Source: an uncultured Candidatus Bathyarchaeia archaeon (GTDB lineage: Archaea; Thermoproteota; Bathyarchaeia; 40CM-2-53-6; CAVXDP01). From it: a stretch of DNA of 64,000 bases. Below the pieces are notes generated by a model that saw nothing but the letters and a program-made list of their open reading frames with translations, was not told the origin of the DNA and did not search any database. The stretch spans positions 1,955 through 65,954 of the forward strand of contig CAZLVF010000004.1 of assembly GCA_964562925.1 (NCBI GenBank), in the 5' to 3' direction. Positions 4,272-63,345 of this stretch are shown here, piece by piece. How positions within the stretch are numbered: the stretch's first letter is position 1; each line of letters opens with the position of its first letter. A program made the position numbers and the translations under genes.

Positions 4272-5054
4272 TTGGAGGAGAGGATGGCCCAGACGACTAG
4301 GGACATGGACCTTGTGCAGAAAGCCAAAGAGATAGTAGATGCGGGCAAACAGGTCGGAGTGCCCATAAGAATTCTAGGCGCCATAGCTACAAGACTGCAT
4401 TGCTCCGTAGACTCTACGTCGGGCTTGAAGAGAGAACTGTCAGATATTGACCTCATGGCCTATGGCAGATTTCGAGAGCAGATAAAACGGCTGCTACTAG
4501 ACCTAGGGTATACCCCGAATGAGAGGTTCATAGCATTATATGGGCATCTGCGATTCATATTCTACGATAAAGACAAGAACACAATAGATGTCTTCTTCGA
4601 CAAGCTCCCAATGTGCCACACTATTGATTTTGCGGGAAGGCTTGAACTTGACTATCCCACAATCACACTATCGGATTTAATGCTGACAAAGTTACAAATT
4701 GTTCAATTCGAAGAGAAGGACTTCAAGGATCTAGTTTGTATATTGAGAGAGCATGAGGTTGGGACAACAGATCAGGAGACAGTAAACGCAAATCGTATTG
4801 CGGACGTGCTAGCCAAAGATTGGGGTTTCTACTACACAGTAACCTCAAATCTGAAAAAGGTTGAAGATGCCCTAGACCAGCCCAATATGACAAGCCACGA
4901 CAAAGAAACCGTGAAGGGCAGAATCGAAGAAATATTAGAATGTATGGAAACGGTCCCTAAGGACCTGAGTTGGCGCATACGTGCCAAAGTCGGAACGAAG
5001 AAGAAGTGGTATACAGAGATCGAGTACCGAGAGAACTACGACCAATCTAGATAG
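4272..5054 (+). CDS. Putative Pol-beta-superfamily nucleotidyltransferase, 10 bp downstream of the phosphoesterase
   Basis: It has a GAIATRLH...SDIDLMAY core (hG[GS]...DhDh) and a third acidic residue in TIDVFFD, followed by a helical C-terminal domain. The call rests on motifs only. Confidence 0.4.
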   Translation: MEERMAQTTRDMDLVQKAKEIVDAGKQVGVPIRILGAIATRLHCSVDSTSGLKRELSDIDLMAYGRFREQIKRLLLDLGYTPNERFIALYGHLRFIFYDKDKNTIDVFFDKLPMCHTIDFAGRLELDYPTITLSDLMLTKLQIVQFEEKDFKDLVCILREHEVGTTDQETVNANRIADVLAKDWGFYYTVTSNLKKVEDALDQPNMTSHDKETVKGRIEEILECMETVPKDLSWRIRAKVGTKKKWYTEIEYRENYDQSR

Positions 5055-5204
5055 ACAACTGGATTGTCAACAACTTTGTACTGCCTCTCTTGACGATTCT
5101 AGAGCCGTGTCCTCCCCTCGAGGTCGAAAGGCTCCTGCGACTTTCAGGTAATCATATGAGTCACAATTTGGCGCAGTGATTCATGAATCTGCTGGTGAAT
5201 ACAG

Positions 5205-6245
5205 ATGTCTGACTGGGAGAAGACGTTGGATGAATATGGCTTGAAGATTGAGCAGAGGTTATCGGGCTTTCTGAAGAATGAGGCTAAGGACGCGGTCGGC
5301 TATCACAGTTTCGTTGGAAGACTCTACTTGGACCTCTATGATTATGTATTCAGAGGTGGGAAAAGGCTGGCTTTGTGTAGTACCCTTCTCACCTATAGAG
5401 GGTTTACTGGCGAGGTCGATGATCGAATCCTAGATGTTTGTGTGGGGATTGAGCTCTACCGCCACGCGATACTAGTACATGACGATCTGGTTGATGATGA
5501 TGAGTTACGGCGTGGAGCCGGAACCATTCACAAGATGTATTCTCAGGAGAAGAATTCACGGTTTGGAAATGGTATGGCGGTCTTTGCGGGAAATATCTTG
5601 TACACCTTGGCCTTGAAAGCGTTTGGCGGTTCAGGCTTGCTTTCGGACAAGATTGTTGAAGTCTTGAAGCTGCTGAATGATGCTTTTCAATCAGTGAATG
5701 AAAGCCAAATTCTAGATCTTCTCTTCGAGTACAAGACGCCAGACGTAGATGAATGGTATGTCATGGCCTCAAAGCGAGCCGCATCGCTCTTCAAAGCCTC
5801 GTTACGCATAGGCGCAGTCTTAGCAGACGCCTCAGACAGAGATGTCAAATTGTTATGTGATGCGGCTGAGCATATAGGCTACTGCTTCGACATCCAAGAC
5901 GATATCATCGATACATTCGCAACAGAAGAGCAGTATGGTAGAAAGCCTGGCGGAGATCTATCCAAACATAAGAAGCCGCTCCACATCGTCTACACGTATA
6001 GAATGGCGAATCAATCACAGCTGCAAACATTTGAGAACGGTATTTGCAAAGATCCTTTAGATCTGGCTGTGATAAGAAGGATAGTATCAGATTGTGGGGC
6101 CCTGGAAGCAGCTAAGAACCATTCGAGAACGCATGCTGACTCAGCTAAGAGATTGATTTCAGAGACAACTATGAGCAAAGACGTCAAGAGCTTCTTTATC
6201 TCGTTCATCGACTACGTGAAAGACAGCCTCAACTGGTACAGGTAG
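5205..6245 (+). CDS. idsA: trans-Polyprenyl (geranylgeranyl) diphosphate synthase
   Basis: Two Asp-rich motifs are present: LVHDDLVDDDELRRG (first) and FDIQDDIID (second). Confidence 0.8.
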   Translation: MSDWEKTLDEYGLKIEQRLSGFLKNEAKDAVGYHSFVGRLYLDLYDYVFRGGKRLALCSTLLTYRGFTGEVDDRILDVCVGIELYRHAILVHDDLVDDDELRRGAGTIHKMYSQEKNSRFGNGMAVFAGNILYTLALKAFGGSGLLSDKIVEVLKLLNDAFQSVNESQILDLLFEYKTPDVDEWYVMASKRAASLFKASLRIGAVLADASDRDVKLLCDAAEHIGYCFDIQDDIIDTFATEEQYGRKPGGDLSKHKKPLHIVYTYRMANQSQLQTFENGICKDPLDLAVIRRIVSDCGALEAAKNHSRTHADSAKRLISETTMSKDVKSFFISFIDYVKDSLNWYR

Positions 6246-9922: not shown

Positions 9923-11608
9923 TCAGCGTGCTTCTTCGCGCAGGGTTATACTCGTGCTCTCAAGAGCCTCTCTCGCTCTTGCTATCCTCTTCCTGAGATC
10001 GACCATAACGGTCTCGTATGTATCTTTCGTGATCTTTCCTGAACGGTATTGAGTTCTGACTTGAGCCTCACTAGCTCTCGCAGCATCTATCTCCGCCTCC
10101 GCCTTATCCATCCTCCTGATCATCTCATCGTACCTTGTAGCTACGGATCTCAACCCATCCTTAACCGAGGCTAGAGACCTGTTCATCTCATCCAACCTGA
10201 GGTCGATGGCTTTCTTCCTGCGTCTAAAATCATGCTTTGAGACTCCTCCTCGCATGAGATCTTCCTCTATCTTTTCAAGCTCAAGTTTCAAGGCCGTCCT
10301 CTCATCATACATTCCAATGAACCTTCGAATCGTCTCAACGGGCGCGGCGACTGTTGGTGTAACTCTCTTTCCCCTAGAAGCTACTAGAAACACGCATATG
10401 ACCAACTCAAGAGCGGCTATCAAAGTGATAGGTTTGAAGGCTGCCCAGAAGCTTAGGTACTTGTACTCCATCTTGAAAGTGAGGTTGTGGAGAGGGGTCA
10501 CTCCCCTAAGGTCGAACGATAAGATCGTCTTTCCATCCTCGACGTACGTAGAGTTTGGATGCTGCGTACTCTGTTGGAGAGTCATCCCCTCCTCCATGAG
10601 TACGCGAACCCTCAGTTTCTCCACCGTCCATGGGTGACTAGTTAAGAAGTCGAAGGTGAAGGCATACAACCCCCACCATTCCTCCTGCTTTACATATCCG
10701 CTAGCGGGCAATCGATAACTCAAGGTGAAAGTGAAATTCTCATCCCCTCTTATCGTGCCATAACGCGGAGAGACAGCGGCCTCGGTCTCGTCTTGGACCT
10801 CGTTCCACAGTGGGCCTCCGAGATCATAGGCCATAACCTTGGACGCGCCTTTCGGCAGCTGTATTGTAAGAGAGGTTATGCTTGCCGCAAGGTTCCTTGT
10901 GGCGTATGTATCTGACACGTAAACGTAGCCGTCGCGGCCAAAGCTGATCTCCCTCTCAACAGACTTGAACCTCACGAACTGGATTGAGACGGACGTAAAG
11001 TTGAATGACATTGAGAGGGCCCTGTTTGGCTCCAGCGGCTTGAAAGTATGAACCAGAGACGGCAGTCCTCCGATGTCCACTTGACTAAAAGTAAAGTTCG
11101 GTGGGAGAAATGTTGCAGAACCTGTGGGTAACAGGATGGTTACTTCGCATACGTCCGCTCCATCTGCGAGGCTAGGCGTATCAGCAAACCTATAGATGAA
11201 TGTGCCTTCCACATATCTTATGATGTTATCAACGACCATTACTGAGCTGAAGTTATATGACTCCTGCGCTCGGACCGGAGTTGGAAACTTGAAGTTCATC
11301 CAATATATCGATGAAGAAGGTTTCACATCTTTCTCGATCGTTACACCTTCTTGATACTGATCTATAGATGAAATGTAGTTTAGGTCCTTGGCGTATTCTA
11401 TGGGGATGCCTACCATGACCTCTGTGACCGGTTCAGTCCCAAGATTGCGGACGGTGACTGTATCGTTAATGGCTGCGACGCCCCACTCGTTGATGAATAT
11501 TCTTCGATTGACCGCTAGACTGTAAGAGCTGGCCGGGCTCGAGGCGACAGATGCCGCTAGGGAAAGCAACAGGATAGCAGAGAGGACTATCACCAGCGGC
11601 CTTCGCAA
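9923..11608 (-). CDS. Surface-exposed membrane protein with signal peptide, one TM helix and a cytoplasmic coiled coil; many N-x-S/T sequons
   Basis: Signal peptide MRRPLVIVLSAILLLSLAASVAS. A TM segment ITLIAALELVICVFLVA lies near residue 400. The C-terminal ~150 aa are heptad-rich with charged residues. Confidence 0.45.
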   Translation of the reverse strand: MRRPLVIVLSAILLLSLAASVASSPASSYSLAVNRRIFINEWGVAAINDTVTVRNLGTEPVTEVMVGIPIEYAKDLNYISSIDQYQEGVTIEKDVKPSSSIYWMNFKFPTPVRAQESYNFSSVMVVDNIIRYVEGTFIYRFADTPSLADGADVCEVTILLPTGSATFLPPNFTFSQVDIGGLPSLVHTFKPLEPNRALSMSFNFTSVSIQFVRFKSVEREISFGRDGYVYVSDTYATRNLAASITSLTIQLPKGASKVMAYDLGGPLWNEVQDETEAAVSPRYGTIRGDENFTFTLSYRLPASGYVKQEEWWGLYAFTFDFLTSHPWTVEKLRVRVLMEEGMTLQQSTQHPNSTYVEDGKTILSFDLRGVTPLHNLTFKMEYKYLSFWAAFKPITLIAALELVICVFLVASRGKRVTPTVAAPVETIRRFIGMYDERTALKLELEKIEEDLMRGGVSKHDFRRRKKAIDLRLDEMNRSLASVKDGLRSVATRYDEMIRRMDKAEAEIDAARASEAQVRTQYRSGKITKDTYETVMVDLRKRIARAREALESTSITLREEAR

Positions 11609-13140: not shown

Positions 13141-14532
13141 TTGTTGGATAAGGCGCATCCATACCTTCCGACCGGCGTAGAAACGATAGAGAAAGATATG
13201 ATGGCAGCCATCGGAATCAACAGCATCGAAGAACTCTTCAAGGACATACCCGACTCGGTCAGGTTGAATAGAAAACTAAAATTGCCAGGCATGATATCTG
13301 AGTTCGAAGTAAGGGAGAAAATCCGTAGGCTTCTAGAAAGAAATGTTTCAGGCCAAGATATGCCGATCTTTCTTGGCGGGGGAGTCTGGCCTCACTACGT
13401 CCCGGTCGTGGTAGACGAGATAGTTAACCGCTCAGAGTTCCTCACAACATACACACCCTACCAAGCCGAGGCCTCGCAGGGCATACTCCAAGCGTTCTTT
13501 GAATATCAAAGCATGATATGCGAGCTGACGGGGATGGATGCTGCCAACTGCTCCCTCTACGATTGGGCAAGTGCCGTTGGAGAAGCTGCCAGAGCGGCTG
13601 TTAGGGTGAATCATAGAAGCGAGATAATCTACCCTCACTACATCCATCCTGAGAGGCTTGGAACGCTAAGAACCTACGCGGAACCGGCAGGTATAGACAC
13701 GGTTGAGGTTGAACAAGACAAGAAGACCGGACAGATTATCCTAGAAGACTTGAAGAAGAAACTGACGGAGAAAACGGCGGCTGTATACATCGAGAACCCT
13801 TCATACCTAGGCTTTTTCGAAGAGGGTGTAGACGAGATCTCAGATCTGACACATAAGAACGAGTCCATACTGATAGTTGGAGTCGACCCGATATCGCTCG
13901 GAATCCTGAAGCCTCCCGGAGAATATGGAGCCGACATAGTTGTCGGCGAGGGACAACCACTGGGAAACGCGATGAACTACGGCGGCCCACTGATCGGGAT
14001 CTACGCATGCAATGGCGATAAGCTGCTTAGACAAATGCCTGGACGAATTGTCGGAATGACAACTACTACTGACGGAAAGCAGAGAGCCTACTGTATGGCC
14101 CTCTCAACCAGAGAGCAACACATTAGACGGGAGAAGGCCACATCAAATATATGCACGAATGAAGCGCTTTTGTCCGTGGCTGCCAGCGTCTACCTCTCAC
14201 TTCTTGGCCCTCATGGCCTCAAAGACCTCTGTACCACGATAGTAACAAAGTCTCATTACGCAATGAAGAGGCTAGGCGAGATACGTGGGATAAAGGCACC
14301 TGCCTTCGAGGCTTCCCATTTCAAAGAGTTTACGGTCAACTTTGACAAGGCGAAGATGAAGGCGAGAGATGTTCATCGAAAACTTCTCAAGGAAGGCGTT
14401 CATGGTGGCAAGATCATTAAGAACGAGTTCCCCGAATTGGGCGAGTCAGCATTATACTGTGTCACGGAAGTTCACTCGAAGAGCGACATCGATAAGTTGA
14501 CAGACGCTCTAAGAAAGATTGTGAGGGGTTAG
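13141..14532 (+). CDS. gcvPA: Glycine dehydrogenase (decarboxylating) subunit 1
   Basis: The N-terminus matches GcvPA (HPYLP...EELFKDIP); the size is typical. The called start codon is TTG. Confidence 0.85.
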   Translation: MLDKAHPYLPTGVETIEKDMMAAIGINSIEELFKDIPDSVRLNRKLKLPGMISEFEVREKIRRLLERNVSGQDMPIFLGGGVWPHYVPVVVDEIVNRSEFLTTYTPYQAEASQGILQAFFEYQSMICELTGMDAANCSLYDWASAVGEAARAAVRVNHRSEIIYPHYIHPERLGTLRTYAEPAGIDTVEVEQDKKTGQIILEDLKKKLTEKTAAVYIENPSYLGFFEEGVDEISDLTHKNESILIVGVDPISLGILKPPGEYGADIVVGEGQPLGNAMNYGGPLIGIYACNGDKLLRQMPGRIVGMTTTTDGKQRAYCMALSTREQHIRREKATSNICTNEALLSVAASVYLSLLGPHGLKDLCTTIVTKSHYAMKRLGEIRGIKAPAFEASHFKEFTVNFDKAKMKARDVHRKLLKEGVHGGKIIKNEFPELGESALYCVTEVHSKSDIDKLTDALRKIVRG

Positions 14533-14534
14533 CC

Positions 14535-16067
14535 ATGTCATTTCAACAAGCAAGATGGAACGAAGAGACGATCTTTGAGAGGTCAGCGACTGGTAAGGTT
14601 GGTTACGTAGCTCCAAAGCCCGATCCAGAAGAGATTGAGGCTATTGGCGACCCTACCCGGCTTGTTCCGAAGAAGCTTCTCAGAGAGAAACCTCCTCTCC
14701 TACCGGAAGTCTCAGAGGTCGAGGTGATGAGACACTACACCCGCCTCTCACAGCAGACGTATGCCGTGACCTTGGGCACGTATCCGCTGGGAAGCTGCAC
14801 CATGAAGTATGACCCGAAGGTCTGCGACGTTGTCGCGGCGACTTCTAAGCTTCAGCTTCTTCATCCATACCAAGATGCGTCCACGGTCCAAGGCATACTC
14901 CAAATACTGTACGAGCTCTCAGAGTTCTTGGCTGAGATAACTGGCACGACCAAGGTCTCGCTTCAACCCTCGGCCGGCGCGCATGGAGAGTTCACCGGGA
15001 CCATGATAATCAGAGCCTACCACAAATACAAGGGCGAGTTGGATAAACGTAGAGACATAATCATCCCAGACTCGGCGCATGGGACGAACCCCGCGAGCAC
15101 GGTCATGGCAGGTTTCAATGTGGTTGAGGTGCCATCCAACCCCGCCGACGGAACCGTAGATGTTGAGGCGCTAAGGTCGACGGTGGGACCTCGAACAGCT
15201 GGACTCATGATCACAAACCCGAACACACTTGGAGTCTTCGAAAAGAATATTGTAGAAATCTCCAAGATCACGCACGAGGCTGGAGGACTACTATACTACG
15301 ACGGAGCCAATATGAACGCTATCCTCGGAAAAAGCAGACCTGGCGACATGGGTTTCGATATAGTACATGTCAACACGCATAAGACGTTGGGCACCCCCCA
15401 TGGGGGAGGGGGGCCTGGCGCAGGTCCGGTAGGAGTCGTCGCAAGCCTTGAGAAGTTCCTGCCTGTGCCCACTGTTGAGTATGATGGAAAAAGATACTAT
15501 CTGGACTATGAGAGGCCCCACAGCATAGGAAAAATAAAGGGTTTCTATGGAAATATCAGTGTTCTTCTCAGAAGCTACGCTTACATACTAGCCTTGGGCA
15601 CGGAAGGCCTTAGGAGAGTGGCTGAGCTCTCGACGTTAAACGCGAACTACATCTGTAGGAGAGTCCTGAAGTCGAAAGGTTACACGTTGCCGTATGGACC
15701 GGAGAACCCGAGAAAGCATGAGTCCGTGATCAGTGCCGAAGAGATGTCGAGGGAAACAGGGGTTAGAGCGCTCAACGTCTCAAAGAGCCTCCTAGACGAT
15801 GGCCTCCATGCACCAACAAACTACTTTCCACTTATTGTGCATGAAGCATTGATGATCGAACCAACCGAGAGCGAGAGCAAGGAAGAACTCGACAAGTTCA
15901 TTGACTCCATGATCCGCATAAGCCAAGAAGCCTACAGCAACCCTGAGAAGGTCTTGAGTGCGCCGCAACACACAACAGTTACTAAGGTCGATGAAGTCAA
16001 AGCGTCGCATCCAAAGACGCTCTGCATAAACTGGAAAACATGCAGGCTCAGGTCGGAGGAGACCTAG
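14535..16067 (+). CDS. gcvPB: Glycine dehydrogenase (decarboxylating) subunit 2
   Basis: PLP-enzyme core with an HVNTHKT-type Lys motif and a Gly-rich HGGGGPGAGP loop. It sits immediately downstream of gcvPA. Confidence 0.85.
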   Translation: MSFQQARWNEETIFERSATGKVGYVAPKPDPEEIEAIGDPTRLVPKKLLREKPPLLPEVSEVEVMRHYTRLSQQTYAVTLGTYPLGSCTMKYDPKVCDVVAATSKLQLLHPYQDASTVQGILQILYELSEFLAEITGTTKVSLQPSAGAHGEFTGTMIIRAYHKYKGELDKRRDIIIPDSAHGTNPASTVMAGFNVVEVPSNPADGTVDVEALRSTVGPRTAGLMITNPNTLGVFEKNIVEISKITHEAGGLLYYDGANMNAILGKSRPGDMGFDIVHVNTHKTLGTPHGGGGPGAGPVGVVASLEKFLPVPTVEYDGKRYYLDYERPHSIGKIKGFYGNISVLLRSYAYILALGTEGLRRVAELSTLNANYICRRVLKSKGYTLPYGPENPRKHESVISAEEMSRETGVRALNVSKSLLDDGLHAPTNYFPLIVHEALMIEPTESESKEELDKFIDSMIRISQEAYSNPEKVLSAPQHTTVTKVDEVKASHPKTLCINWKTCRLRSEET

Positions 16068-19335: not shown

Positions 19336-19797
19336 TTGGGATTGGTCAACTGGGCTAGGCGTAAGAGCCCCTGGCTCGTCCATTTCAATACAGGGGGATG
19401 CAACGCCTGTGATATTGAGGTATTAGCCGCTCTGATGCCTCGTTACGATCTGGAACGGTTTGGTGCCATACTAAAGGGGAGCCCGAGGCACGCGGACGTT
19501 CTAGTTGTCACGGGACCGGTGAATATGCAGAACAGGGATAGAATAATCAGGATATACGAACAGATGCCTTCCCCAAAGTTTGTCGTCTCGGTCGGTAACT
19601 GCTGTAATAGCTCAGGAGTCTACAGAGGCGCCTACAACGTGTACCCTGGTCTAGATTCTGTAATCCCGGTCGACGCCTATGTCTATGGCTGCCCGCCGAA
19701 ACCTGAGGCGATAATCCACGGCGTCGCGGCACTGCTATCAAAGATAAAAGAAGCAGGGCAACCCCCTAAGGAAACGACTCAGGAGGTGACCGCGTAG
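19336..19797 (+). CDS. [NiFe] hydrogenase small subunit, group-4 / NuoB-like
   Basis: The proximal-cluster ligand pattern is GGCNACD ... GNCC ... GCPP. Confidence 0.7.
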   Translation: MGLVNWARRKSPWLVHFNTGGCNACDIEVLAALMPRYDLERFGAILKGSPRHADVLVVTGPVNMQNRDRIIRIYEQMPSPKFVVSVGNCCNSSGVYRGAYNVYPGLDSVIPVDAYVYGCPPKPEAIIHGVAALLSKIKEAGQPPKETTQEVTA

Positions 19798-19798
19798 G

Positions 19799-20980
19799 AT
19801 GTCGTCAAGTTTTAGCATTATCGTTGGACCTCAGCACCCTGCACTAAAAGAACCGGAGAGCTTCAAGTTTACGGTTGACGGAGAGAATGTGGTGAAGGCC
19901 GAGGTTCGTATAGGATACGCGCACAAAGGCATCGAGAAGCTGGCTGAAACCAAGAACTACATTCAGAACATACCACTGATGGAGCGGATCTGCGGGATAT
20001 GCAATGTCGCTCACACAATCTGTTACTGCCAGAATGTCGAGTATCTTTATGAAAAGGAGATTCCACGGCGTGCAGAATACATCAGGGTCGTCATAGAAGA
20101 ACTTAACAGGATACACAGTCACCTCCTCTGGATAGGTGTCCTTGGACACGAGGTTGGCTTCGACACTCTCTTTATGTATCTTTGGAGAGACCGTGAAGTC
20201 GTCATGGATCTTATAGAGCTCCTGACGGGGAACAGAGTCTCGACCGCACTGATGACGATTGGAGGGGTCAGGCGAGACATCACCTCTGAGATAGCCCAGA
20301 AACTGAGGAAAGGAATGGATATTCTCGAGGAAAGAACAAGATACTACAAGAAGGTTGTGACAGATGAACGCTCATTACTGCAAAGAGCGGTGGGTGTGGG
20401 TAGGCTTACACCTGCCGAGGCGATAAAACATTCAGCCGTTGGACCGACTCTTAGAGCGTCAGGAATAAGATCTGACGTTAGAAGCGATGATCCGTACGCG
20501 GCTCATGATGAGATTCCATTCAACGTCATCACTCATGGTTCCTGCGACATGTTCGGAAGGGTCGTCGTCAGAGTCGACGAGACGATTGAAGCCATAAACC
20601 AGGTACGATACTGCCTCGACCAAATGCCCGACGGCCCGATCAGAACTCGGTTACCCAACACGCCGCCCAGAGGAGAATCGGTCAGCCGAGTGGAAGCTCC
20701 AAGGGGCGAAGATATCCACTACGTGAAGTCCAATGGCACGGACAAACCGGAAAGGTACAAGGTTCGGGCGCCCACCCTAGGAAATCTCTCAGCGCTTGTA
20801 GAGATGTTGACTTCAAAGGAGGACTACCAGGTGCACATCGCAGATATACCTGTCGTTCTGGCCGGCATAGACCCGTGCATGTGCTGCATGGATCGAACCG
20901 CTCGGTTTGTCGAACCTTCGAGAGAGAAAGAGTGGATCTGGACCTGGGAACAGCTCAAGAAGTACACTGAGAGGATGTGA
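19799..20980 (+). CDS. [NiFe] hydrogenase large subunit, group-4 / NuoD-like, with both Ni-binding motifs
   Basis: The N-terminal L1 motif RICGICNVAH and the C-terminal L2 motif DPCMCCMDR are both intact. This is unlike complex I NuoD, which lacks these cysteines. Confidence 0.75.
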   Translation: MSSSFSIIVGPQHPALKEPESFKFTVDGENVVKAEVRIGYAHKGIEKLAETKNYIQNIPLMERICGICNVAHTICYCQNVEYLYEKEIPRRAEYIRVVIEELNRIHSHLLWIGVLGHEVGFDTLFMYLWRDREVVMDLIELLTGNRVSTALMTIGGVRRDITSEIAQKLRKGMDILEERTRYYKKVVTDERSLLQRAVGVGRLTPAEAIKHSAVGPTLRASGIRSDVRSDDPYAAHDEIPFNVITHGSCDMFGRVVVRVDETIEAINQVRYCLDQMPDGPIRTRLPNTPPRGESVSRVEAPRGEDIHYVKSNGTDKPERYKVRAPTLGNLSALVEMLTSKEDYQVHIADIPVVLAGIDPCMCCMDRTARFVEPSREKEWIWTWEQLKKYTERM

Positions 20981-21333
20981 AACCCATGTCCATGACTCCA
21001 GAGGTGTACAGGAACCTATTCAAGAAGAGAGCGACAATCCTCTATCCATTCAAGGAGAGAGAACTCGTCCCAGTTCCGAAAGGGCTTAGAGGTAAACTGG
21101 CCTTCAATCTTGAAAGATGCATAGGATGCAGCATGTGCTTCCGCTCATGCCCCTCAGAAACGGTTGAGATGATCGATGACGAGACAAAGAAACGCCCAAA
21201 GAGACCGATCTTCTACCTTGACCGATGCACATTTTGCGCACAATGCGAAGAGGTCTGCCCAACCCGCGCTATAGAGATGACCTTGAACTTCGAGCTTGCA
21301 GGCTTTGATAGAAAGCAGACCCTGCTTAAGTGA
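20977..21333 (+). CDS. 2x[4Fe-4S] ferredoxin subunit (NuoI/EchF-like)
   Basis: Two clusters: CIGCSMCFRSCP and CTFCAQCEEVCP. It overlaps the large subunit by 4 bp. Confidence 0.75.
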   Translation: MKPMSMTPEVYRNLFKKRATILYPFKERELVPVPKGLRGKLAFNLERCIGCSMCFRSCPSETVEMIDDETKKRPKRPIFYLDRCTFCAQCEEVCPTRAIEMTLNFELAGFDRKQTLLK

Positions 21334-21372: not shown

Positions 21373-22467
21373 CTAATCGGGAACAGTCACGGAGGAATGG
21401 GATATATACTTGGCCTCTCTCCCCTTCTTCCTAGACGAGATTTCCCTGACCAGAGATAGTCCATCCCCTGCAATAGGCTTTGCTTCTATAATGTTTTTCT
21501 CAACAGCGCTCCTAACCAGCCTCTCACCTTTCTCTGTCCGGACTAGTACCACGCACCAACCATCCGGAGCGCCGTCCGCACCTACCGATATGTCGGCCAG
21601 TTCTGATGTGAAGTCATCGCATTTACTGCACGCTTCAAGCAGGCATGGTTCGATCTCTTTGGTGGGGCTCTCGAGCACCACTCTTTCTCCTTGATAGACT
21701 CTGAGGCGGCCGTCCCTAGCCTGCAAACTCATCTTTGTGGTCGCCTGCAAATCAATATTCTTCCGAGCCTTCAAGTAGTCAATTACAAGTTTGTTGTGAT
21801 GATAACTGTTGTTGCAGAACAATCCGATCGCTAGTTCCACCCATTCTCCCAACTTACGAGGACCGAACGTTGAGGTGGAGACTCTCCTCAGCGCCTGAAT
21901 CTGGCAAGGCAAACCTACGAAGGCGAGTTTGGAATCTGGGTAGCCGAGCGCCGCGTCTTTCACCTTCGACAGCGAAGCGCTTGCACTACATTTTGTTCCA
22001 GCAGCAGCAAGCAGTTGTTCAAGACGCTTCATCTCTATCGGCACAGGTCTCCAAGGTTTCTCATCTGTTCTAGTGGTTCCGACAGCGTAGTCCACAAGGC
22101 CTGTGTCGATCGCGTGAGCTAGAAGTGATGTAACGACTCCGCCGTTCTGCGCAACCTTCAAGACCGCTTCGTCCTTTGACCGGGCGACGTGGGATTCCCG
22201 AATGATTCCGAGGTCCGTCTCCTCTTTCGATCTTGCACGCTTGAACATCCATGTCTCGATCCCGTCTCTCGGAAGCTCGACGCGTGGGCATGAATAGTAA
22301 CAGAGTTGACAGAGGACGCAGATGCCTTTGATGGTGGGTTTCTCATCTTCAGTTGGAAACAGAACGTTAACGGGACAGGCGGCTATGCAGGCTCCGCAGA
22401 ACATGCAGAGGTTACTCTGCACGACCTCCTTGACCAGAGTCCCGAATATCTTTAGTGGCTGGGACAA
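21373..22467 (-). CDS. Coenzyme F420 hydrogenase/dehydrogenase beta-subunit family protein (FpoF/FrhB-like) with an N-terminal 2x[4Fe-4S] domain
   Basis: The N-terminus has CMFCGACIAACP and CVLCQLCYYSCP. A FrhB-like body follows, with C-terminal Cys (CSKCDD). Confidence 0.6.
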   Translation of the reverse strand: MSQPLKIFGTLVKEVVQSNLCMFCGACIAACPVNVLFPTEDEKPTIKGICVLCQLCYYSCPRVELPRDGIETWMFKRARSKEETDLGIIRESHVARSKDEAVLKVAQNGGVVTSLLAHAIDTGLVDYAVGTTRTDEKPWRPVPIEMKRLEQLLAAAGTKCSASASLSKVKDAALGYPDSKLAFVGLPCQIQALRRVSTSTFGPRKLGEWVELAIGLFCNNSYHHNKLVIDYLKARKNIDLQATTKMSLQARDGRLRVYQGERVVLESPTKEIEPCLLEACSKCDDFTSELADISVGADGAPDGWCVVLVRTEKGERLVRSAVEKNIIEAKPIAGDGLSLVREISSRKKGREAKYISHSSVTVPD

Positions 22468-22564: not shown

Positions 22565-24496
22565 CTACCTGAAGTATGGAATCACGTCTTTCGATATCAA
22601 GTAGATGGCATCCGCTTTGTTGGGGCCGATCGGTGACCCTACCACTATCTGCGTTACACCGGTCCTCAATATCTCGTCTATCTTGTTCACGATGTCGCTC
22701 GGCCTCCCACATATCGCGAACGAGTCAAGCATCTGGTCTGTTACGGCTTTGAAGGCGTCCCCGAACTTGCCTTTCTCCAAGAAGGCTAGGATTTGTGATG
22801 CGTTCTCCGCAGGGATATCATGCCTCTTTAGAACCTCGGCTGGGCTTCCAGCAACTATGAAAGCGACAACCTCCTTGGCTTTTTCTCTGGCTTTGATCTT
22901 GTCGTAATCAACGGATACGCTCGCGTAGGCTACAACGTCTATCTTGGACTTGTCCCTTCCACTCGCCTGAAGACCCTTGCTTATCTGCTCGGCGGCGAAC
23001 TTGAAGTCACGTGGGTGCGCCGCGTTTATCAATACGCCATCAGCTATCGTCCCGGCAAGTTCAAGAAGCTTGGGCCCTTGCGCGCCGATATAAACCGGTG
23101 GTGACCTTTTCGGCTTGTAGTTCAACCTCGCCCCTTTCAACGAGAAGACCTTCCCGTCGAACTTCACGGTCTCCCCACGCCAAAGCCGTTTTATGATCTC
23201 GACGCATTCCCTCATGGCCGCGAGAGGCTTCCCAGAGGCTATACCCAGAGATCTCAGGGTTGTCACGTCACCTGGGCCTAGGCCTAGTATCGCTCGGTTT
23301 TCTGAAAGTTCATCTAGTGTCGCAACGGCGGAGGCGGTCCATGCGGGGTTTATGTGAAACGGGTTTGTCACGCCAGTTCCTATTGTGATCGTCTTTGTAT
23401 TAAGCGCGATAGATGTGAGGAGTATGTAGATGTTCCGGTTGTTGTAGTGGTCTGTAACCCATACGTTGTCGAAGCCTCCATTCTCAGCTGCCTTTACCCA
23501 GTTGACTATCTTGTCAACAGCTTTGTCTGGAACGAACTCTATTCCAAACTTGGGTTTGGCTACTCCCTCTGGAAGACGTGCTCCCTTCTCTAAGAAAAGC
23601 GACTTCGAAATCTCGTAGGCTACGGCATGGTCGAACACGCCTTTCGTTAGGTCGATGGCACGCCTAAAAAGCTCGGCCTCGATCGTATTCTTAGATGCTC
23701 CTATAGCCAGGGCGCCTATCCCACGAACGCCAGGCGTGAACTCGATGCCATCGTCTGTCGGCTTTAGGCCCTCGACCCCTGTTGGCGGAACAGCATTCAC
23801 GTCTCCAACGACCTTGCATTTTGAACCGTAGCTTTTCAGTGTGTCCAATGATAGAAGCTGGACGCCAGCTGTCCCCGCCACGATGATAATATCAGAATCT
23901 TGAATCGCTTTCCCTATCTCGTCCTGTGTCTGACCTCTAGCACCTTGAACCAGAGTTGTCTTCAGTTCCTGGTTTATCTTATCGACTAATGCCCTGGCCT
24001 TCTCGAGGCTTCTCGAGGTTGCTGTTACAGGGATGCTTTCCGACGCAAGCAGGTAGGTTGCTATCTTTCCTACCGGCCCAGTGGCAGCCAGAACCGTTGC
24101 CTTCGCACCCTTCAAGCTTGGATTATGCTTGCGGTAGAGAGCGAGAACCCTTGCCACAACAGCTGAGCCAGTGGTTGATGCTCCCCTCGGATCGACTATG
24201 ATTCCCAACTCGAAAGGTGGGAACATCGCTTTTCTGGCTTCGCTGAGTATCTGGTCTGCTTTCTCGACATCATATCCACCGATGAAGATCTTTGTTTTCT
24301 TGGCGCCTTCCGATCCACGTGGAAACATCGCGTCTTGAACAATCTTTCTGGTATCGCTTGACTCCACATTACTATAGTAGACTATCTGAGCCTCTGGATA
24401 CAGATAGGAAGCCGTCAATAGATCAAAGGCACTCGCATGTTTATCGGTATCTAGGAAGATTATGGTATTTCTTAGAGAACCTGCCATCACAAACAC
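22565..24496 (-). CDS. Fusion protein: N-terminal MtdA-like NAD(P)-dependent methylene-H4MPT/H4F dehydrogenase + C-terminal Mer (F420-dependent 5,10-methylene-H4MPT reductase, LLM family)
   Basis: The N-terminal ~300 aa match MtdA in recalled segments (FLDTD..SAFD, IFIGGYDVEKADQ, VVARVLALYRK, ATVLAATGPVG). The C-terminal ~330 aa match Mer (KFGIEFVP...TDHYNNRNIY...GTGVTNPF...SPIGPNKAD). Confidence 0.7.
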   Translation of the reverse strand: MFVMAGSLRNTIIFLDTDKHASAFDLLTASYLYPEAQIVYYSNVESSDTRKIVQDAMFPRGSEGAKKTKIFIGGYDVEKADQILSEARKAMFPPFELGIIVDPRGASTTGSAVVARVLALYRKHNPSLKGAKATVLAATGPVGKIATYLLASESIPVTATSRSLEKARALVDKINQELKTTLVQGARGQTQDEIGKAIQDSDIIIVAGTAGVQLLSLDTLKSYGSKCKVVGDVNAVPPTGVEGLKPTDDGIEFTPGVRGIGALAIGASKNTIEAELFRRAIDLTKGVFDHAVAYEISKSLFLEKGARLPEGVAKPKFGIEFVPDKAVDKIVNWVKAAENGGFDNVWVTDHYNNRNIYILLTSIALNTKTITIGTGVTNPFHINPAWTASAVATLDELSENRAILGLGPGDVTTLRSLGIASGKPLAAMRECVEIIKRLWRGETVKFDGKVFSLKGARLNYKPKRSPPVYIGAQGPKLLELAGTIADGVLINAAHPRDFKFAAEQISKGLQASGRDKSKIDVVAYASVSVDYDKIKAREKAKEVVAFIVAGSPAEVLKRHDIPAENASQILAFLEKGKFGDAFKAVTDQMLDSFAICGRPSDIVNKIDEILRTGVTQIVVGSPIGPNKADAIYLISKDVIPYFR

Positions 24497-45112: not shown

Positions 45113-45373
45113 TTGAGTGTGAACGAAATCGTTCAAGAAGAGAATCCTTCACTTCCAAAGATAGTCATCTTGGGGAATCTTTGTAAGGGATGCGGGATAT
45201 GTATCGAGTTCTGCCCTTTCAAGATTTTAAAGACGGGAAGCCGCATGACGAGGAAGGGTATCTTTCCTCCTGAGGTTATCAATCAGAGCAAATGCACAGC
45301 TTGCCGAATCTGCCAGCACTTTTGCCCCGACTTTGCAATATTCATCGTCGGGAGGTCTCAGATTTCGCCTTAG
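45113..45373 (+). CDS. 2-oxoacid:ferredoxin oxidoreductase delta subunit (2x[4Fe-4S])
   Basis: CKGCGICIEFCP and CTACRICQHFCP. Confidence 0.75.
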   Translation: MSVNEIVQEENPSLPKIVILGNLCKGCGICIEFCPFKILKTGSRMTRKGIFPPEVINQSKCTACRICQHFCPDFAIFIVGRSQISP

Positions 45374-45393
45374 CAAAACCCGGAAGATACTTT

Positions 45394-46509
45394 ATGCAGG
45401 GAAATGAGGCGTGCGCCCTAGGTGCTGTCGCGGCAGGTTGCCGATTCTTCGCGTTCTACCCCATCACTCCAGCAGGCGAGATTGCCGAGAAGATGTCTCA
45501 TCTTCTCCCAAAGGTCCGAGGCGTCTACATTCAGATGGAGGACGAGATCGCATCCATCGGGAGTGTGATCGGCGCATCGTGGACTGGTTTGAAAGCTATG
45601 ACCGCCACCTCTGGTCCTGGCTTCAGCCTCATGCAGGAGAACATCGGATACGCGGTGATGACCGAGACGCCTTGCGTGATTGTGGATGTGCAGCGGGCAG
45701 GCCCTAGCACCGGAATCGTCTCTGCTCCGATGCAAGGAGATGTAGCTCAAGCCAGACACGGCAGTCACGGCGAGTATGAGATTATCGCTCTTGCACCATC
45801 GTCTGCTCAAGAGATGTTCGACTTAACGATTCGAGCATTCAACCTCTCTGAGCAGTTCCGAACGCCGGTGATCGTGCTCGCCGACGAGACGGTTGGCCAC
45901 ATGCGTGAGGAGGTCATCATTCCCGAGAAAAGGTCGCTCACGATCGTCAATAGAAAGGTTCCATCGAGTAGTGAAGAGGCGTCACGAAGCTTCCTGAGCC
46001 CTTCGGTCGCTCCAATGCCAGCGTTGGGAACGGGCTTCTCAGTTCACGTTACCGGATCCGCACATGACGAATATGGAAAACGAGTATCTGGCTCACCTGA
46101 CGCGATCGACAGGATAGTCAGAACAATCAGTGAAAAGATACAAGTGCACACGGAAAAGATCTCGAACTTTGAGATGGTGATGTTGGACGACGCAGACATA
46201 GCACTCGTCGCGTACGGAAGCTGTTCTAGAACAGCAGAGTTCGTTGTGAAGCGGGCGCATGAGAAAGGAGTGCACCTCGGTCTGCTCAGACTGATCGAGC
46301 TATGGCCCTTCCCTAGAAAGGGTGTGCAGGAAGCGCTGAAGCATGTCGAGAAGATCGTTGTGTTAGAGAATAACCTTGGCCAAGTACTCCCCGAGATTGA
46401 GAGAGCAATGGCAGGCCATGCAGAGATAACGTTTCTCCCTCCCGAAACGATCGGAACCCTGCACAGACCCGACTATGTTTTAGAGCATGTGATGAAGGTC
46501 GCCATGTAG
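45394..46509 (+). CDS. 2-oxoacid:ferredoxin oxidoreductase alpha subunit. The ORF-track start at 45292 overlaps delta. The ATG at 45394 is the likelier start.
   Basis: MQGNEACALGAVAAGCRFFAFYPITP matches the Por/Kor/Vor alpha N-terminus. Confidence 0.75.
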   Translation: MQGNEACALGAVAAGCRFFAFYPITPAGEIAEKMSHLLPKVRGVYIQMEDEIASIGSVIGASWTGLKAMTATSGPGFSLMQENIGYAVMTETPCVIVDVQRAGPSTGIVSAPMQGDVAQARHGSHGEYEIIALAPSSAQEMFDLTIRAFNLSEQFRTPVIVLADETVGHMREEVIIPEKRSLTIVNRKVPSSSEEASRSFLSPSVAPMPALGTGFSVHVTGSAHDEYGKRVSGSPDAIDRIVRTISEKIQVHTEKISNFEMVMLDDADIALVAYGSCSRTAEFVVKRAHEKGVHLGLLRLIELWPFPRKGVQEALKHVEKIVVLENNLGQVLPEIERAMAGHAEITFLPPETIGTLHRPDYVLEHVMKVAM

Positions 46510-46511
46510 TC

Positions 46512-47348
46512 TTGCCAACTCATCAGTCGCACCCATTGGCCAAGTACCTGCGTCCCGGCGCCCAGCCGCACTTGCATTGCTCAGGCTGTGGCAACGGAAT
46601 CATTGCACAATGCTTTCTTAGAGCCGTCGACGAAGCCGAGATCCCGACGAGAAAGATTGTTTGCGTCGCGGGAATTGGATGCAGCGGTTGGATTCCCAGC
46701 CCCTTGTTCAACATGGATACGCTTCATGTGACTCATGGCAGACCGATCGCTTTCGCTACCGGCGTTAAGCTCAGCAACCCAAGTTTAGAGGTTGTAGTCT
46801 TTACGGGCAACGGAGACTGCTCCGCAATCGGAGGTAATCACCTCATACATGCTGCTCGTAGAAACATCGGGATCAAAGTGATCTGCGTCAACAACATGAT
46901 CTATGGCATGACAGGTGGAGAGGTAGCTCCCACGACACCCCGAGGGATCAAAACAACGACTACTCCCTTTGGCAACTTGGAGAGGCCATTCGACCTTTCG
47001 AGACTGGTCGCGGCGGCTGGAGGAACCTACGTTGTAAGATGGACCACGTACCATGTCGCCGGACTAGTTGCCTCGATGAAGAAGGCTTTGAAGAGGAGAG
47101 GCTTCGCTTTTGTTGAGGTCATATCACAGTGCCCCATCCACTACGGGCGTAGGGCAGGGTTCTCAAATCCGGTCGACATGATGAGGTGGTTTCAGAAGCA
47201 ATCTGTCACAATTGAGCGGGCAAGTGAAATGAGCGAACAAGAGCTTTCCGGAAAATTTGTTGTGGGAGAGTTCGTAAACATCGAGGCGCCGGAGCTGACC
47301 GGGCTATACGCAGAGCTATTTGAGGCAACCAATCGTGAGTCGAACTGA
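46512..47348 (+). CDS. 2-oxoacid:ferredoxin oxidoreductase beta subunit (TPP-binding)
   Basis: HCSGCGNG...GIGCSGW motifs. Confidence 0.75.
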   Translation: MPTHQSHPLAKYLRPGAQPHLHCSGCGNGIIAQCFLRAVDEAEIPTRKIVCVAGIGCSGWIPSPLFNMDTLHVTHGRPIAFATGVKLSNPSLEVVVFTGNGDCSAIGGNHLIHAARRNIGIKVICVNNMIYGMTGGEVAPTTPRGIKTTTTPFGNLERPFDLSRLVAAAGGTYVVRWTTYHVAGLVASMKKALKRRGFAFVEVISQCPIHYGRRAGFSNPVDMMRWFQKQSVTIERASEMSEQELSGKFVVGEFVNIEAPELTGLYAELFEATNRESN

Positions 47349-47904
47349 AGTCAGGCTCGCAGGGTTCGGCGGCCAAGGCTTGATCCTAGCCGGAATCCTA
47401 CTAGGCCACGCTGCAGCTGCTCATGAAGGGAAGAAGGCTGTTCAGACCCAGTCCTATGGATCAGAGACTAGAGGGGGAGCAGCTCGCTCAGAGGTCGTAA
47501 TCTCAAATGAGAGGATAGACTATCCCAAGGTGATTTCGGCTGACATCACAATTACAATGTCGCAAGAAGCGTTTGACATGTACGCAAGTGATATACGGCC
47601 CGGACGCAAGCTGTTCATTGATGCCGACTTGGTCTCCAGCGTGCCAGCCGACCTTGAAAGCGTGCTTTGTCGAATTCCGGCGACAAAGATAGCGGCGGAG
47701 GAGCTGAAGAAGACGCTGGTTGCCAACATGGTCATGCTTGGGGCGGTGGTCGCAGTAACCAAGGTAGTTGAACTTGCCAGCTTGGAGAAGAGTATCAGGG
47801 AACTGGCTCCCAAAGGATCGATCGACCTGAACATACGAGCCTTGGAGCGAGGGTTCGAGTGGGCAAATGCGCATCTTAGAAGCGAAATGGGTCGAGGTGG
47901 ATGA
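47320..47904 (+). CDS. 2-oxoacid:ferredoxin oxidoreductase gamma subunit
   Basis: LAGFGGQG motif; about 190 aa. Confidence 0.7.
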   Translation: MRQPIVSRTEVRLAGFGGQGLILAGILLGHAAAAHEGKKAVQTQSYGSETRGGAARSEVVISNERIDYPKVISADITITMSQEAFDMYASDIRPGRKLFIDADLVSSVPADLESVLCRIPATKIAAEELKKTLVANMVMLGAVVAVTKVVELASLEKSIRELAPKGSIDLNIRALERGFEWANAHLRSEMGRGG

Positions 47905-53696: not shown

Positions 53697-54818
53697 CTAT
53701 AGGACCCGTTTGAACACCATTGTAGCTATGCCAACCATGACTACCGTGAAGACCGCTAAGAAGAGAAAGTCTTCTACAACTGCTGAGAAACTTGCTCCCT
53801 TGTACATGAGTAGACGAAGGGCGTGTACAGCGTAGGCTTCTGGATTGACAACCGTGATCTCCTGCATCCACTCCGGAAACCCTTCGATAGGATAGATCGC
53901 GCCGCTTGTGAAGTAGAGCACCAGATTGATTGGAAACGAAGTGAACTGGTACACCTCTGGCGCCGGAGCCCTTACAGCGAAGGCGGTCATCATGGAGATC
54001 AATCCGAGACTCGTTAGAAAGATTGTGATTAGCATAAGAAGAAAACCTGTAGCGTCGGTCATCGGACGAACTCCAGCCACCAGGATGGCGAGAAACAGCA
54101 TAGTAAGCGATGAGAACATTGCCTTGATGACACCTGCTAGGAGAACTCCTATGATTATCTCATATTGTCGGAGCGGAGTTACAAGGTATCCTTCGATTAC
54201 GCCTCGTTGCTTGTCGAATAGGATGGATACGCCTCCACCGATAATAGAGGCTATGAAGACGGCTTGAATAACAGACCCGGGCGCCATGAACTCGATGTAT
54301 TCGACCTTACGATAGAAGCTGGCTACGTCAAGAATGAGGTTTGGATCACGGACTCCTGTTAGGCAGACTCGGTTCGAGAGCTGTTGAGCTGTAATCTGGA
54401 AGAAGCTTGAGACCGTTGAAGCACTTAGGGGATCAGTGTTGTCTAAGTAGAGAGTGACAAAAGCTTGGTTCTCCTTGCGCAAATGGCTGTCGAACCCGCC
54501 GGGGATGTAGATTATGGCTTTCACTCTCCCCTGTTGCAGAAGGAGTTGTGCAAAATCCAAGTCTGGAACGTCTATCAGACGAACGGTCTCTCCCGTCGCC
54601 ACGGTCTCTAGAAAAGCCGTAGAGTAGCTGCCTTGGCTGTCTCTTACGACCGCTACTGGCACATCAGTTATTTCTCCACCAAAAGCGTTCCCTAACAAGA
54701 CTAGCATCAAGAAAGGCGCCAGGAGAGCCGACATCATAACGAATGGTTGCTTCACAAACTTGCGGATGTCTCTCTCACAAACCCATAATGCGCCTTTCAT
54801 CGCCGCAACGCCTCCCAA
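53697..54818 (-). CDS. ABC-2 family permease with a large N-terminal extracytoplasmic domain
   Basis: One N-terminal TM, a ~150-aa loop, then 5 TM helices. Confidence 0.7.
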   Translation of the reverse strand: MGGVAAMKGALWVCERDIRKFVKQPFVMMSALLAPFLMLVLLGNAFGGEITDVPVAVVRDSQGSYSTAFLETVATGETVRLIDVPDLDFAQLLLQQGRVKAIIYIPGGFDSHLRKENQAFVTLYLDNTDPLSASTVSSFFQITAQQLSNRVCLTGVRDPNLILDVASFYRKVEYIEFMAPGSVIQAVFIASIIGGGVSILFDKQRGVIEGYLVTPLRQYEIIIGVLLAGVIKAMFSSLTMLFLAILVAGVRPMTDATGFLLMLITIFLTSLGLISMMTAFAVRAPAPEVYQFTSFPINLVLYFTSGAIYPIEGFPEWMQEITVVNPEAYAVHALRLLMYKGASFSAVVEDFLFLAVFTVVMVGIATMVFKRVL

Positions 54819-57174: not shown

Positions 57175-57210
57175 GCCCTTGCACCACAGTTGAACATGGT
57201 GCGTGGATAG

Positions 57211-63331: not shown

Positions 63332-63345
63332 TAGGGACAGAACCT

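Follow-up and report, generated by a model that had tools for sequence, protein, structure and literature searches.

Does a single archaeal protein carry two consecutive steps of the tetrahydromethanopterin (H4MPT) branch of one-carbon (C1) metabolism? This question is raised by one open reading frame (ORF) in contig CAZLVF010000004.1 of an uncultured Candidatus Bathyarchaeia archaeon, of which a stretch of 64 kb (the window) was analysed. An initial annotation, made from the DNA letters, had described the ORF as a single polypeptide that joins an MtdA-like methylene-H4MPT dehydrogenase to a coenzyme F420-dependent methylene-H4MPT reductase (Mer). This description holds: one ORF of 643 aa contains two near-full-length domain sets, as found by profile hidden Markov models, PDB sequence matches, fold comparison and comparative tests. 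We consider it likely that the product is a genuine, selectively maintained bifunctional H4MPT C1 enzyme in a narrow Bathyarchaeia clade.

Two complete enzyme domains in one reading frame

The C-terminal part, about 330 aa, corresponds to Mer from end to end, as the initial annotation had stated. Residues 316–641 of the fusion pass both NCBIfam equivalog models of Mer, which are NF002619 (456.8 bits against a cut-off of 276, over model positions 1–325 of 325) and TIGR03555 (444.5 bits against 348.7), and the Pfam domain Bac_luciferase is found at residues 326–616 with 240.6 bits. Using phmmer against PDB, the same residues align with the entire Mer of M. jannaschii (jMer; 8QPL residues 2–328, E = 8e-110), and 1Z69, 1F07 and 1EZW were also matched. 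In an AlphaFold2 model searched with Foldseek, this half takes the luciferase-like (beta/alpha)8 fold, with a target-normalised TM-score of 0.95, a root-mean-square deviation (rmsd) of 1.7 Å and 55% identity to jMer (8QPM). In general, the Mer half is 54–55% identical to methanogen Mer (jMer 8QPL/8QPM and M. barkeri 1Z69). However, canonical Mer is a standalone homodimer with subunits of about 330 aa, while the Mer half has no initiator Met, follows a 310-aa MtdA domain and belongs to a non-methanogenic Bathyarchaeia host.

In jMer, Glu6 donates the proton (the E6Q variant retains 0.4% of kcat), Asp96, Phe233 and a residue called Gln178 line the pterin/F420 site, and the non-prolyl cis-peptide Gly61-Val62 is the backstop of F420 (Gehl et al. 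2024, PMC11094777). Residues E320, D410, N491, F546 and G375-V376 of the fusion are identical to jMer E6, D96, position 178, F233 and G61-V62, respectively, and the hydrophobic-pocket residues V322 and V543 equal jMer V8 and V230. Every Mer residue that was probed by mutagenesis in M. jannaschii is kept in the fusion, and Gly375-Val376, the same residue pair as in jMer, is its predicted cis-peptide site. As for position 178, which is Gln in the paper (PMC11094777), the deposited 8QPL chain A has Asn (GVLINAS) in the HMMER alignment, and N491 of the fusion is Asn too.

The N-terminal part, about 300 aa, is MtdA-like, which also agrees with the initial annotation. Mpt_N (PF09176), an N-terminal domain specific to MtdA, occupies residues 37–103 (model positions 14–80 of 81), and its 71.6 bits exceed the gathering score of 27. 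By phmmer against PDB, residues 12–306 align with nearly the whole of MtdA from Methylorubrum extorquens AM1 (1LU9 residues 6–285 of 287, E about 1e-40; 6TLK residues 6–293 of 303), with 6TGE matched as well. The modelled half has the same two-domain fold as MtdA (1LU9/1LUA, 6TGE, 6TLK), i.e. Mpt_N followed by a Rossmann domain, with a TM-score of 0.92 and an rmsd of 2.3 Å to 6TLK. The possibility that this part is an unrelated Rossmann domain, which the initial annotation had named against itself, is rejected by the presence of Mpt_N and by the end-to-end MtdA alignment. Matches of this strength lie well outside what chance would produce.

MtdA of M. extorquens is an NADP-dependent enzyme that uses methylene-H4MPT or methylene-H4F (H4F, tetrahydrofolate). 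It is bacterial and standalone, whereas the fusion domain, about 32% identical to it, is archaeal and runs straight into Mer. The motifs of MtdA are kept in the fusion, including DTD (residues 16–18), GGxD, the TT-loop D-x-x-G-x-x-TT (DPRGASTTGSA, corresponding to DSNGSNTTAAA of MtdA), the GxGxxG-type dinucleotide motif (ATGPVG, aligned with GTGPVG) and D-x-NA-x-PP-x-G (DVNAVPPTG, corresponding to DYNAQPPLG), and the nucleotide-binding and cleft blocks are invariant across six fusion proteins. Following Rossmann strand beta-2, the fusion has Ser161-Arg162 and no acidic residue; NADP-specific MtdA has Gly-Arg at this place and shares the Arg. This fits NADP and suggests a likely, putative preference of the MtdA half for NADP(H).

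Membership of the FolD-like/MTHFD group was also considered for the fusion and rejected, since THF_DHG_CYH_C scores 16 bits, under its gathering score of 27, and no cyclohydrolase domain was found in the fusion by Pfam. These enzymes are an analogue in principle only. FolD and the eukaryotic C1-tetrahydrofolate synthase (MTHFD1) hold consecutive pterin-C1 steps in one polypeptide, for which channelling has been proposed, and this is the same principle as in the fusion. However, their steps are dehydrogenase and cyclohydrolase, with or without synthetase, their carrier is H4F, and they have no homology to the reductase half of the fusion. To our knowledge, no FolD/MTHFD member joins a dehydrogenase to a methylene reductase.

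At the junction, both the stop codon of MtdA and the start codon of Mer are absent, and there is no in-frame ATG, GTG or TTG at the Mer N-terminus. No stretch of the six-fusion alignment varies more than the junction (LEKGxRLxEGxxKP), which contains one 1-aa indel, with the frame always kept; Pro315, just before the Mer N-terminus KFGIEF, is invariant in the six fusions. The whole-fusion AlphaFold2 model, built from a 39-sequence alignment, reaches a mean predicted local distance difference test (pLDDT) of 90.8 and a predicted TM-score (pTM) of 0.86. Both folds are complete in it, mostly at pLDDT above 90, while the linker between them is at about 65. No PDB chain found by Foldseek spans both halves.

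The ORF is counted from a GTG, but translation probably begins at the ATG at 24487 (residue 4), which gives 640 aa, because the database protein P0001, 100% identical to the fusion of the window, has 640 aa and the orthologue in L003, one of the related genomes described below, begins at the equivalent ATG. An AAGGTG motif precedes this ATG.

Recurrence, rarity and distribution of the fusion

By word-indexed search, six clusters of full-length fusions (639–653 aa) were recovered from 5.8 billion proteins; they are 79–100% identical and come from JGI, NCBI and ENA data. Moreover, when one genome of each GTDB species was scanned, three different Bathyarchaeia metagenome-assembled genomes (MAGs; L001–L003) proved to contain the fusion in frame. 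Nei-Gojobori counts were made between the window and these three loci. Synonymous sites are saturated (proportion of differences, pS, 0.63–0.75), while the proportion of non-synonymous differences (pN) is 0.05–0.11 in both halves and 0.16–0.29 in the linker, which thus changes 2–4 times faster. The ratio of non-synonymous to synonymous substitution (dN/dS) is 0.04–0.05 for the MtdA half and 0.015–0.07 for the Mer half. Both halves are under strong purifying selection and neither is decaying.

The initial annotation had called such a fusion unusual, and the databases bear this out. Among 1.84 billion representatives at 50% identity, only one (P0003, 1182 bits by phmmer) has both halves, and the next match (362 bits) is Mer alone. 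Any other MtdA-Mer fusion would score near the sum of the two domain scores and be listed, so there are no further ones among the matches. The fusion is confined to one narrow Bathyarchaeia clade (at least 79% identity). Public data label the protein, if at all, simply as Mer. Full-text searches of the literature (subscription-only papers lie outside this scope) turned up no mention of a fusion of Mtd with Mer, and none was found in the accessible part of a survey of archaeal gene fusion and fission with its supplements (PMC11237513). MtdA-Mer is therefore apparently a new domain architecture of two well-known enzymes: the chemistry is known for Bathyarchaeia, and the fusion is new.

To trace where the two genes lie elsewhere, 80 loci from other species, L001–L003 included, were compared. 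None of the 77 non-fusion loci has an MtdA-like gene and a mer gene within 10 kb on either side, so the fusion is not derived from a widely conserved gene pair, and an origin from an adjacent mtdA-like/mer pair was rejected. The other Bathyarchaeia MtdA-like genes, 36–39% identical to the N-terminal half of the fusion, are not beside mer.

Candidates for the same fusion in other lineages were rejected as well. Long Mer proteins (P0084, P0086 and P0066) have unannotated extensions that are not MtdA, and long MtdA proteins (P0099, P0144, P0176 and others) have unannotated extensions that are not Mer. The Mer-type proteins P0084 (1079 aa), P0086 (886 aa), P0066 (543 aa) and P0032 (539 aa) have N-terminal extensions of 200–760 aa without convincing Pfam domains, which may be other Mer fusions or mis-called starts. 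For the MtdA side, there is a recurrent family of 550–580 aa (here X-MtdA), in which a conserved N-terminal domain of about 250 aa is followed by a full MtdA-like enzyme. Its members are P0040, P0045–P0049, P0099, P0144, P0161, P0174, P0176, P0177 and a gene at locus L086 (7001–8683). The N-terminal domain of X-MtdA has no Pfam match and no PDB match, contains invariant residues (for example, E-x-G-M-R-S), and may exceed the MtdA-Mer fusion in novelty. In addition, P0052 (358 aa) has precomputed Pfam matches to Bac_luciferase and F420_ligase (CofE), and may be an F420-related composite or a partial protein.

Proposed reaction, gene context and a candidate F420 partner

In the proposed mechanism, the MtdA half would interconvert methenyl-H4MPT+ and methylene-H4MPT with NAD(P)(H), probably NADP(H), and the Mer half would interconvert methylene-H4MPT and methyl-H4MPT with F420(H2). 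The net reaction would be methenyl-H4MPT+ + NADPH + F420H2 <-> methyl-H4MPT + NADP+ + F420. With a tether of about 12 residues, the labile methylene-H4MPT would be made and consumed on one protein. Such tethering could keep the local methylene-H4MPT pool small and limit the spontaneous loss of formaldehyde, and it is reasonable to suppose, as the initial annotation had raised as a possibility, that the fusion may channel its intermediate.

The textbook potentials (Thauer's reviews) are about -390 mV for methenyl/methylene-H4MPT, -320 mV for methylene/methyl-H4MPT, -360 mV for F420 and -320 mV for NADP, from which NADP-linked oxidation of methylene-H4MPT yields about -13 kJ/mol and its F420H2-linked reduction about -6 kJ/mol. 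Each flux direction combines one uphill and one downhill step, and therefore the fusion would let the favourable step pull the unfavourable one. Under standard conditions the coupled pair slightly favours methyl-H4MPT oxidation (about -7 kJ/mol). Since a high cellular NADPH/NADP ratio could reverse this preference, the sequence leaves the flux direction unsettled, and the physiological role may be either reductive acetyl-CoA synthesis or methyl-group oxidation.

MtdA is a homotrimer. Mer of M. jannaschii is a homodimer (PMC11094777). One chain with trimer and dimer interfaces could assemble as a hexamer or an even larger complex.

The window shares its gene order with the L001–L003 MAGs: MetRS, PHP, the fusion, an FrhB-like gene, the convergent NuoI/NuoD/NuoB-like genes, FtsZ, MiaB-like and GcvPB/PA (Table 1). 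This synteny is conserved only among close relatives. The initial annotation had placed an FpoF/FrhB-like gene on the same strand next to the fusion, and it is indeed found there, directly downstream; in L001–L003 its counterpart, 66–67% identical, also lies 3' of the fusion. The protein contains FrhB_FdhB_N, FrhB_FdhB_C and Fer4 (Pfam), with two CxxCxxCxxxCP motifs preceding the Frh domains. Within the FpoF/FrhB family (the F420-interacting subunit of Fpo and subunit beta of Frh), it shares the layout of FpoF, in which a 2x[4Fe-4S] domain is N-terminal. Unlike FpoF/FrhB systems, the gene has no Fpo membrane complex or FrhAG nearby, and a membrane-less NuoB/D/I-like [NiFe] module lies there instead.

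In Methanohalophilus, ANME-2, Methanoliparum and a Halobacteria MAG, standalone mer is likewise followed directly downstream, at about 25–180 bp, by an FpoF/FrhB-like gene. Thus mer/fpoF-like is a recurring gene pair, which the fusion locus shares, and the FrhB-like protein is most likely the candidate F420-recycling partner of the Mer half. It would re-reduce or re-oxidise F420, with electrons passing through ferredoxin-type clusters, possibly those of the adjacent [NiFe] module. As a separate observation, the FrhB-like gene in L001/L082 (4759–5984) is matched in two frames (query 1–62 at 4759–4944 and 45–358 at 5046–5984), suggesting that the ferredoxin domain is split off by a frameshift, an insertion or an assembly error.

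The [NiFe] module of the window has no NuoC, NuoH or antiporter subunits. The cysteines kept by its NuoD-like subunit lie in CGICNVAH (65–72) and DPCMCCMDR (358–366). A 79%-identical copy of the module sits in the unrelated neighbourhood L083, where an FrhB-like gene (49% identical) once more converges on it and CofE is nearby, and homologues at 59–66% identity sit in full 11-subunit Hfo/Fpo-like operons. This arrangement suggests a soluble hydrogenase "head", derived from a complex-I-like head, that would partner the FrhB-like protein in reducing F420 for Mer.

A further reading, which we regard as unlikely, takes the fusion as the catalytic end of an unrecognised soluble module. In this module the NuoB/NuoD/NuoI-type [NiFe] hydrogenase, which would be the shed "head" of an Hfo/Fpo-like complex, docks the FpoF-like flavoprotein and reduces F420 with H2 or ferredoxin, F420H2 feeds Mer and NADPH feeds the MtdA half, and the trimer and dimer domains might build a higher-order particle that channels methylene-H4MPT.

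The pathway context agrees in part with the initial annotation, which had pointed to H4MPT/F420-based C1 metabolism. This is supported, but it is not new, as it is known for Bathyarchaeia: those of the Bathy-6 group pair a Mtd related to the bacterial NAD(P) type with an F420-type Mer in the methyl branch of the Wood-Ljungdahl pathway in its archaeal form and encode an orphan FrhB (Loh et al. 2021, PMC7886697). The fusion belongs to the same class, but Mtd and Mer of Bathy-6 are separate proteins. The source of F420H2 for Bathyarchaeia Mer was called unclear in that study (PMC7886697). Among standalone homologues of the N-terminal half, P0007 is the closest (59% identical); its gene belongs to a cluster of FwdD, FwdB, FwdA-like, Mch, MtdA-like, Ftr and a second Mch, next to which MtrH and a corrinoid protein are encoded. 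At L086, the more distant MtdA-like gene (X-MtdA type) is followed by NfnA/NfnB-like genes, which are NADPH suppliers.

The initial annotation had also placed gcvPA/PB about 6 kb away and linked them to the fusion. The distance is right (6.5 kb), but the proximity is weak evidence for a functional link, because the genes between (a MiaB-like radical SAM enzyme, FtsZ and the hydrogenase module) are unrelated to C1 metabolism and the synteny is found only among close relatives.

Three other regions of the window are recorded here. The 561-aa protein at 9923–11608 (-) matches Pfam Ribophorin_I (59 bits against a gathering score of 25), a subunit of the eukaryotic oligosaccharyltransferase, which is unusual for a Bathyarchaeia-like genome. 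The region 55912–61047 (+) contains a gene for a 420-aa CARDB-domain protein and, after it, a 1278-aa ORF without Pfam match at E<=1e-5, and several ABC-2 transporter genes flank this pair (53697–55828 and 61050–63879). The genes at 45292–47904 (+) encode a 2-oxoacid:ferredoxin oxidoreductase of three subunits (POR_N/PFOR_II, TPP_enzyme_C and POR gamma domains), which is likely a source of reduced ferredoxin in this organism.

Table 1. Coordinates of the fusion, its domains and the neighbouring genes in the window, with related loci
Feature	Position	Strand	Remarks
MtdA-Mer fusion ORF	22565..24496	(-)	643 aa from GTG at 24496; stop codon 22565-22567; uninterrupted
MtdA-type NAD(P)-dependent methylene-H4MPT dehydrogenase domain (putative activity)	23579..24463	(-)	Residues 12-306; Mpt_N, then Rossmann domain with ATGPVG at 138-143
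Inter-domain linker	23552..23596	(-)	Residues ~301-315 (LEKGARLPEGVAKP); variable, ~12 residues
F420-dependent methylene-H4MPT reductase (Mer) domain (putative activity)	22574..23551	(-)	Residues 316-641
FrhB/FpoF-like F420-binding iron-sulfur flavoprotein	21373..22467	(-)	N-terminal 2x[4Fe-4S] ferredoxin domain; 97 bp downstream of fusion
Three-gene membrane-less group-4 [NiFe]-hydrogenase-like module	19336..21333	(+)	Convergent with FrhB-like gene
NuoB-like small subunit	19336-19797	(+)	Pfam
NuoD-like large subunit	19799-20980	(+)	393 aa; Pfam; four Ni-Fe cysteines kept
NuoI-like 2x[4Fe-4S] subunit	20977-21333	(+)	Pfam
gcvPA and gcvPB	13141-16067		6.5 kb from fusion
Loci with standalone mer/fpoF-like pair			L014, L025, L028, L031, L032, L033, L072
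Loci with [NiFe] module or homologues			Window 19336-21333 (+); L083 7548-10687; L084; L085

Alternative readings and significance

Several observations weigh against a bifunctional H4MPT enzyme with an F420-recycling neighbour. Classing of the N-terminal half as MtdA or MtdB was attempted, but no NCBIfam MtdA/MtdB model matches it, and it is therefore assigned only via Pfam, PDB homology (32% identity) and context. The sequence does not separate NADP from NAD or H4MPT from H4F, and archaeal MtdA-like proteins, the fusion included, are known from sequence alone. The initial annotation had proposed a check of the genome for companion genes. Run on the window, it found no Fwd, Ftr, Mch, carbon monoxide dehydrogenase/acetyl-CoA synthase (CODH/ACS, Cdh), F420-biosynthesis (cof) or H4MPT-biosynthesis gene, and since no other gene of these kinds is there, the window does not establish a complete H4MPT pathway in the organism; pathway context comes from relatives, such as the P0007 cluster. 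Two symmetries, trimer and dimer, meet in one chain, possibly at the cost of one interface. The FrhB-like protein belongs to the broad FrhB_FdhB family of Pfam, as judged by its domains, and to neither named equivalog: it scores 187.7 against a cut-off of 331.5 for FrhB (TIGR03289), and 133.5 against 475 and 134 against 444 for FpoF (NF040616 and NF006808). The fusion and the FrhB-like gene are separated by a 97-bp gap, which makes co-transcription and partnership no more than possible. Finally, outside the fusion clade mtdA-like and mer genes do not even lie side by side, indicating no wider selective trend to couple them.

Among the alternatives, the one that survives best is that the fusion is functional but selectively neutral, i.e. 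an accident of stop-codon loss that brings no channelling or kinetic benefit, with the FrhB-like and hydrogenase genes as neighbours by descent only. We consider it possible, though doubtful. It fits the limitation of the fusion to one narrow clade, the synteny shared by close relatives only and the short, poorly conserved linker. However, the fusion persisted while synonymous sites became saturated, and the whole-chain pTM would hint, weakly, at domains set in a defined way relative to each other, instead of beads on a string. In addition, mer and an fpoF-like gene are paired independently in distant Methanosarcinales, ANME-2 and Methanoliparum, and an FrhB-like gene is found with the hydrogenase trio again in the different neighbourhood L083. 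Because both recur in distant lineages or an unrelated neighbourhood, these pairings are not merely inherited synteny.

It is rather improbable that the N-terminal domain is not a methylene-H4MPT dehydrogenase and acts on methylene-H4F (FolD-like, linked to glycine cleavage) or another substrate, so that the two halves share no intermediate. The low identity to characterised MtdA and the lack of a matching curated equivalog leave room for it, M. extorquens MtdA itself accepts both H4MPT and H4F (PMC9012536), and gcvPA/PB lie 6.5 kb off in conserved synteny. On the other hand, Mpt_N is over its gathering score, the alignment with MtdA is end-to-end with the substrate-cleft motifs kept, the nearest standalone homologue sits among Fwd, Mch and Ftr genes, the domain is covalently linked to a Mer-equivalog half that uses methylene-H4MPT, and the genes separating the fusion from gcvP are unrelated to C1 metabolism.

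A catalytically silent half, kept only as a scaffold or regulator (e.g. to sense a pterin or nucleotide for the other half), is very improbable. The sequence-only knowledge of the activities would allow it, and trimeric and dimeric parents that are hard to reconcile may disable one half, but all mutagenesis-tested Mer residues are conserved, the MtdA nucleotide-binding and cleft motifs are invariant in the six fusions, dN/dS is equally low in the two halves, and both folds are predicted to be complete at pLDDT above 90.

An artefact, be it a sequencing or assembly frameshift (which the initial annotation had itself raised) or a chimeric join of two adjacent genes, can be dismissed with near certainty: only one cluster at 50% identity has the architecture and its contigs come mostly from metagenome assemblies, yet the same in-frame junction recurs in independent assemblies (the window, the six clusters and the genomes of three GTDB species), the frame has held, even across a one-codon linker indel, while about 70% of synonymous sites differ, the Mer N-terminus lacks a start codon, and, as standalone mtdA-like and mer genes are adjacent in no sampled relative, an artefact would find no gene pair to join.

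The importance of a maintained, probably bifunctional MtdA-Mer enzyme is limited for now by its narrow distribution; in principle, consecutive enzymes are often found fused, and the two parts are themselves familiar. Nevertheless, it joins an NADP-type step of the archaeal C1 pathway to an F420-type one. Bathyarchaeia are among the most abundant archaea of anoxic sediments, and the methyl branch of their H4MPT Wood-Ljungdahl pathway has been deduced from genomes only. The fusion is strong "Rosetta-stone" evidence that the archaeal homologues of bacterial-type MtdA are methylene-H4MPT dehydrogenases partnering Mer, which would replace the F420-dependent Mtd of methanogens, and it implies that one of the two reductions in this lineage depends on NADP(H) and the other on F420(H2). 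As a single and easily expressed protein, it offers a way of measuring cofactor specificity, reaction direction and the channelling of methylene-H4MPT, and it could serve as a part for synthetic C1-assimilation pathways. Together, the fusion, the FpoF-like gene and the [NiFe] module provide a concrete candidate for the F420H2 source of Bathyarchaeia Mer, and the soluble-module reading, if true, would answer the question about this source raised in PMC7886697.

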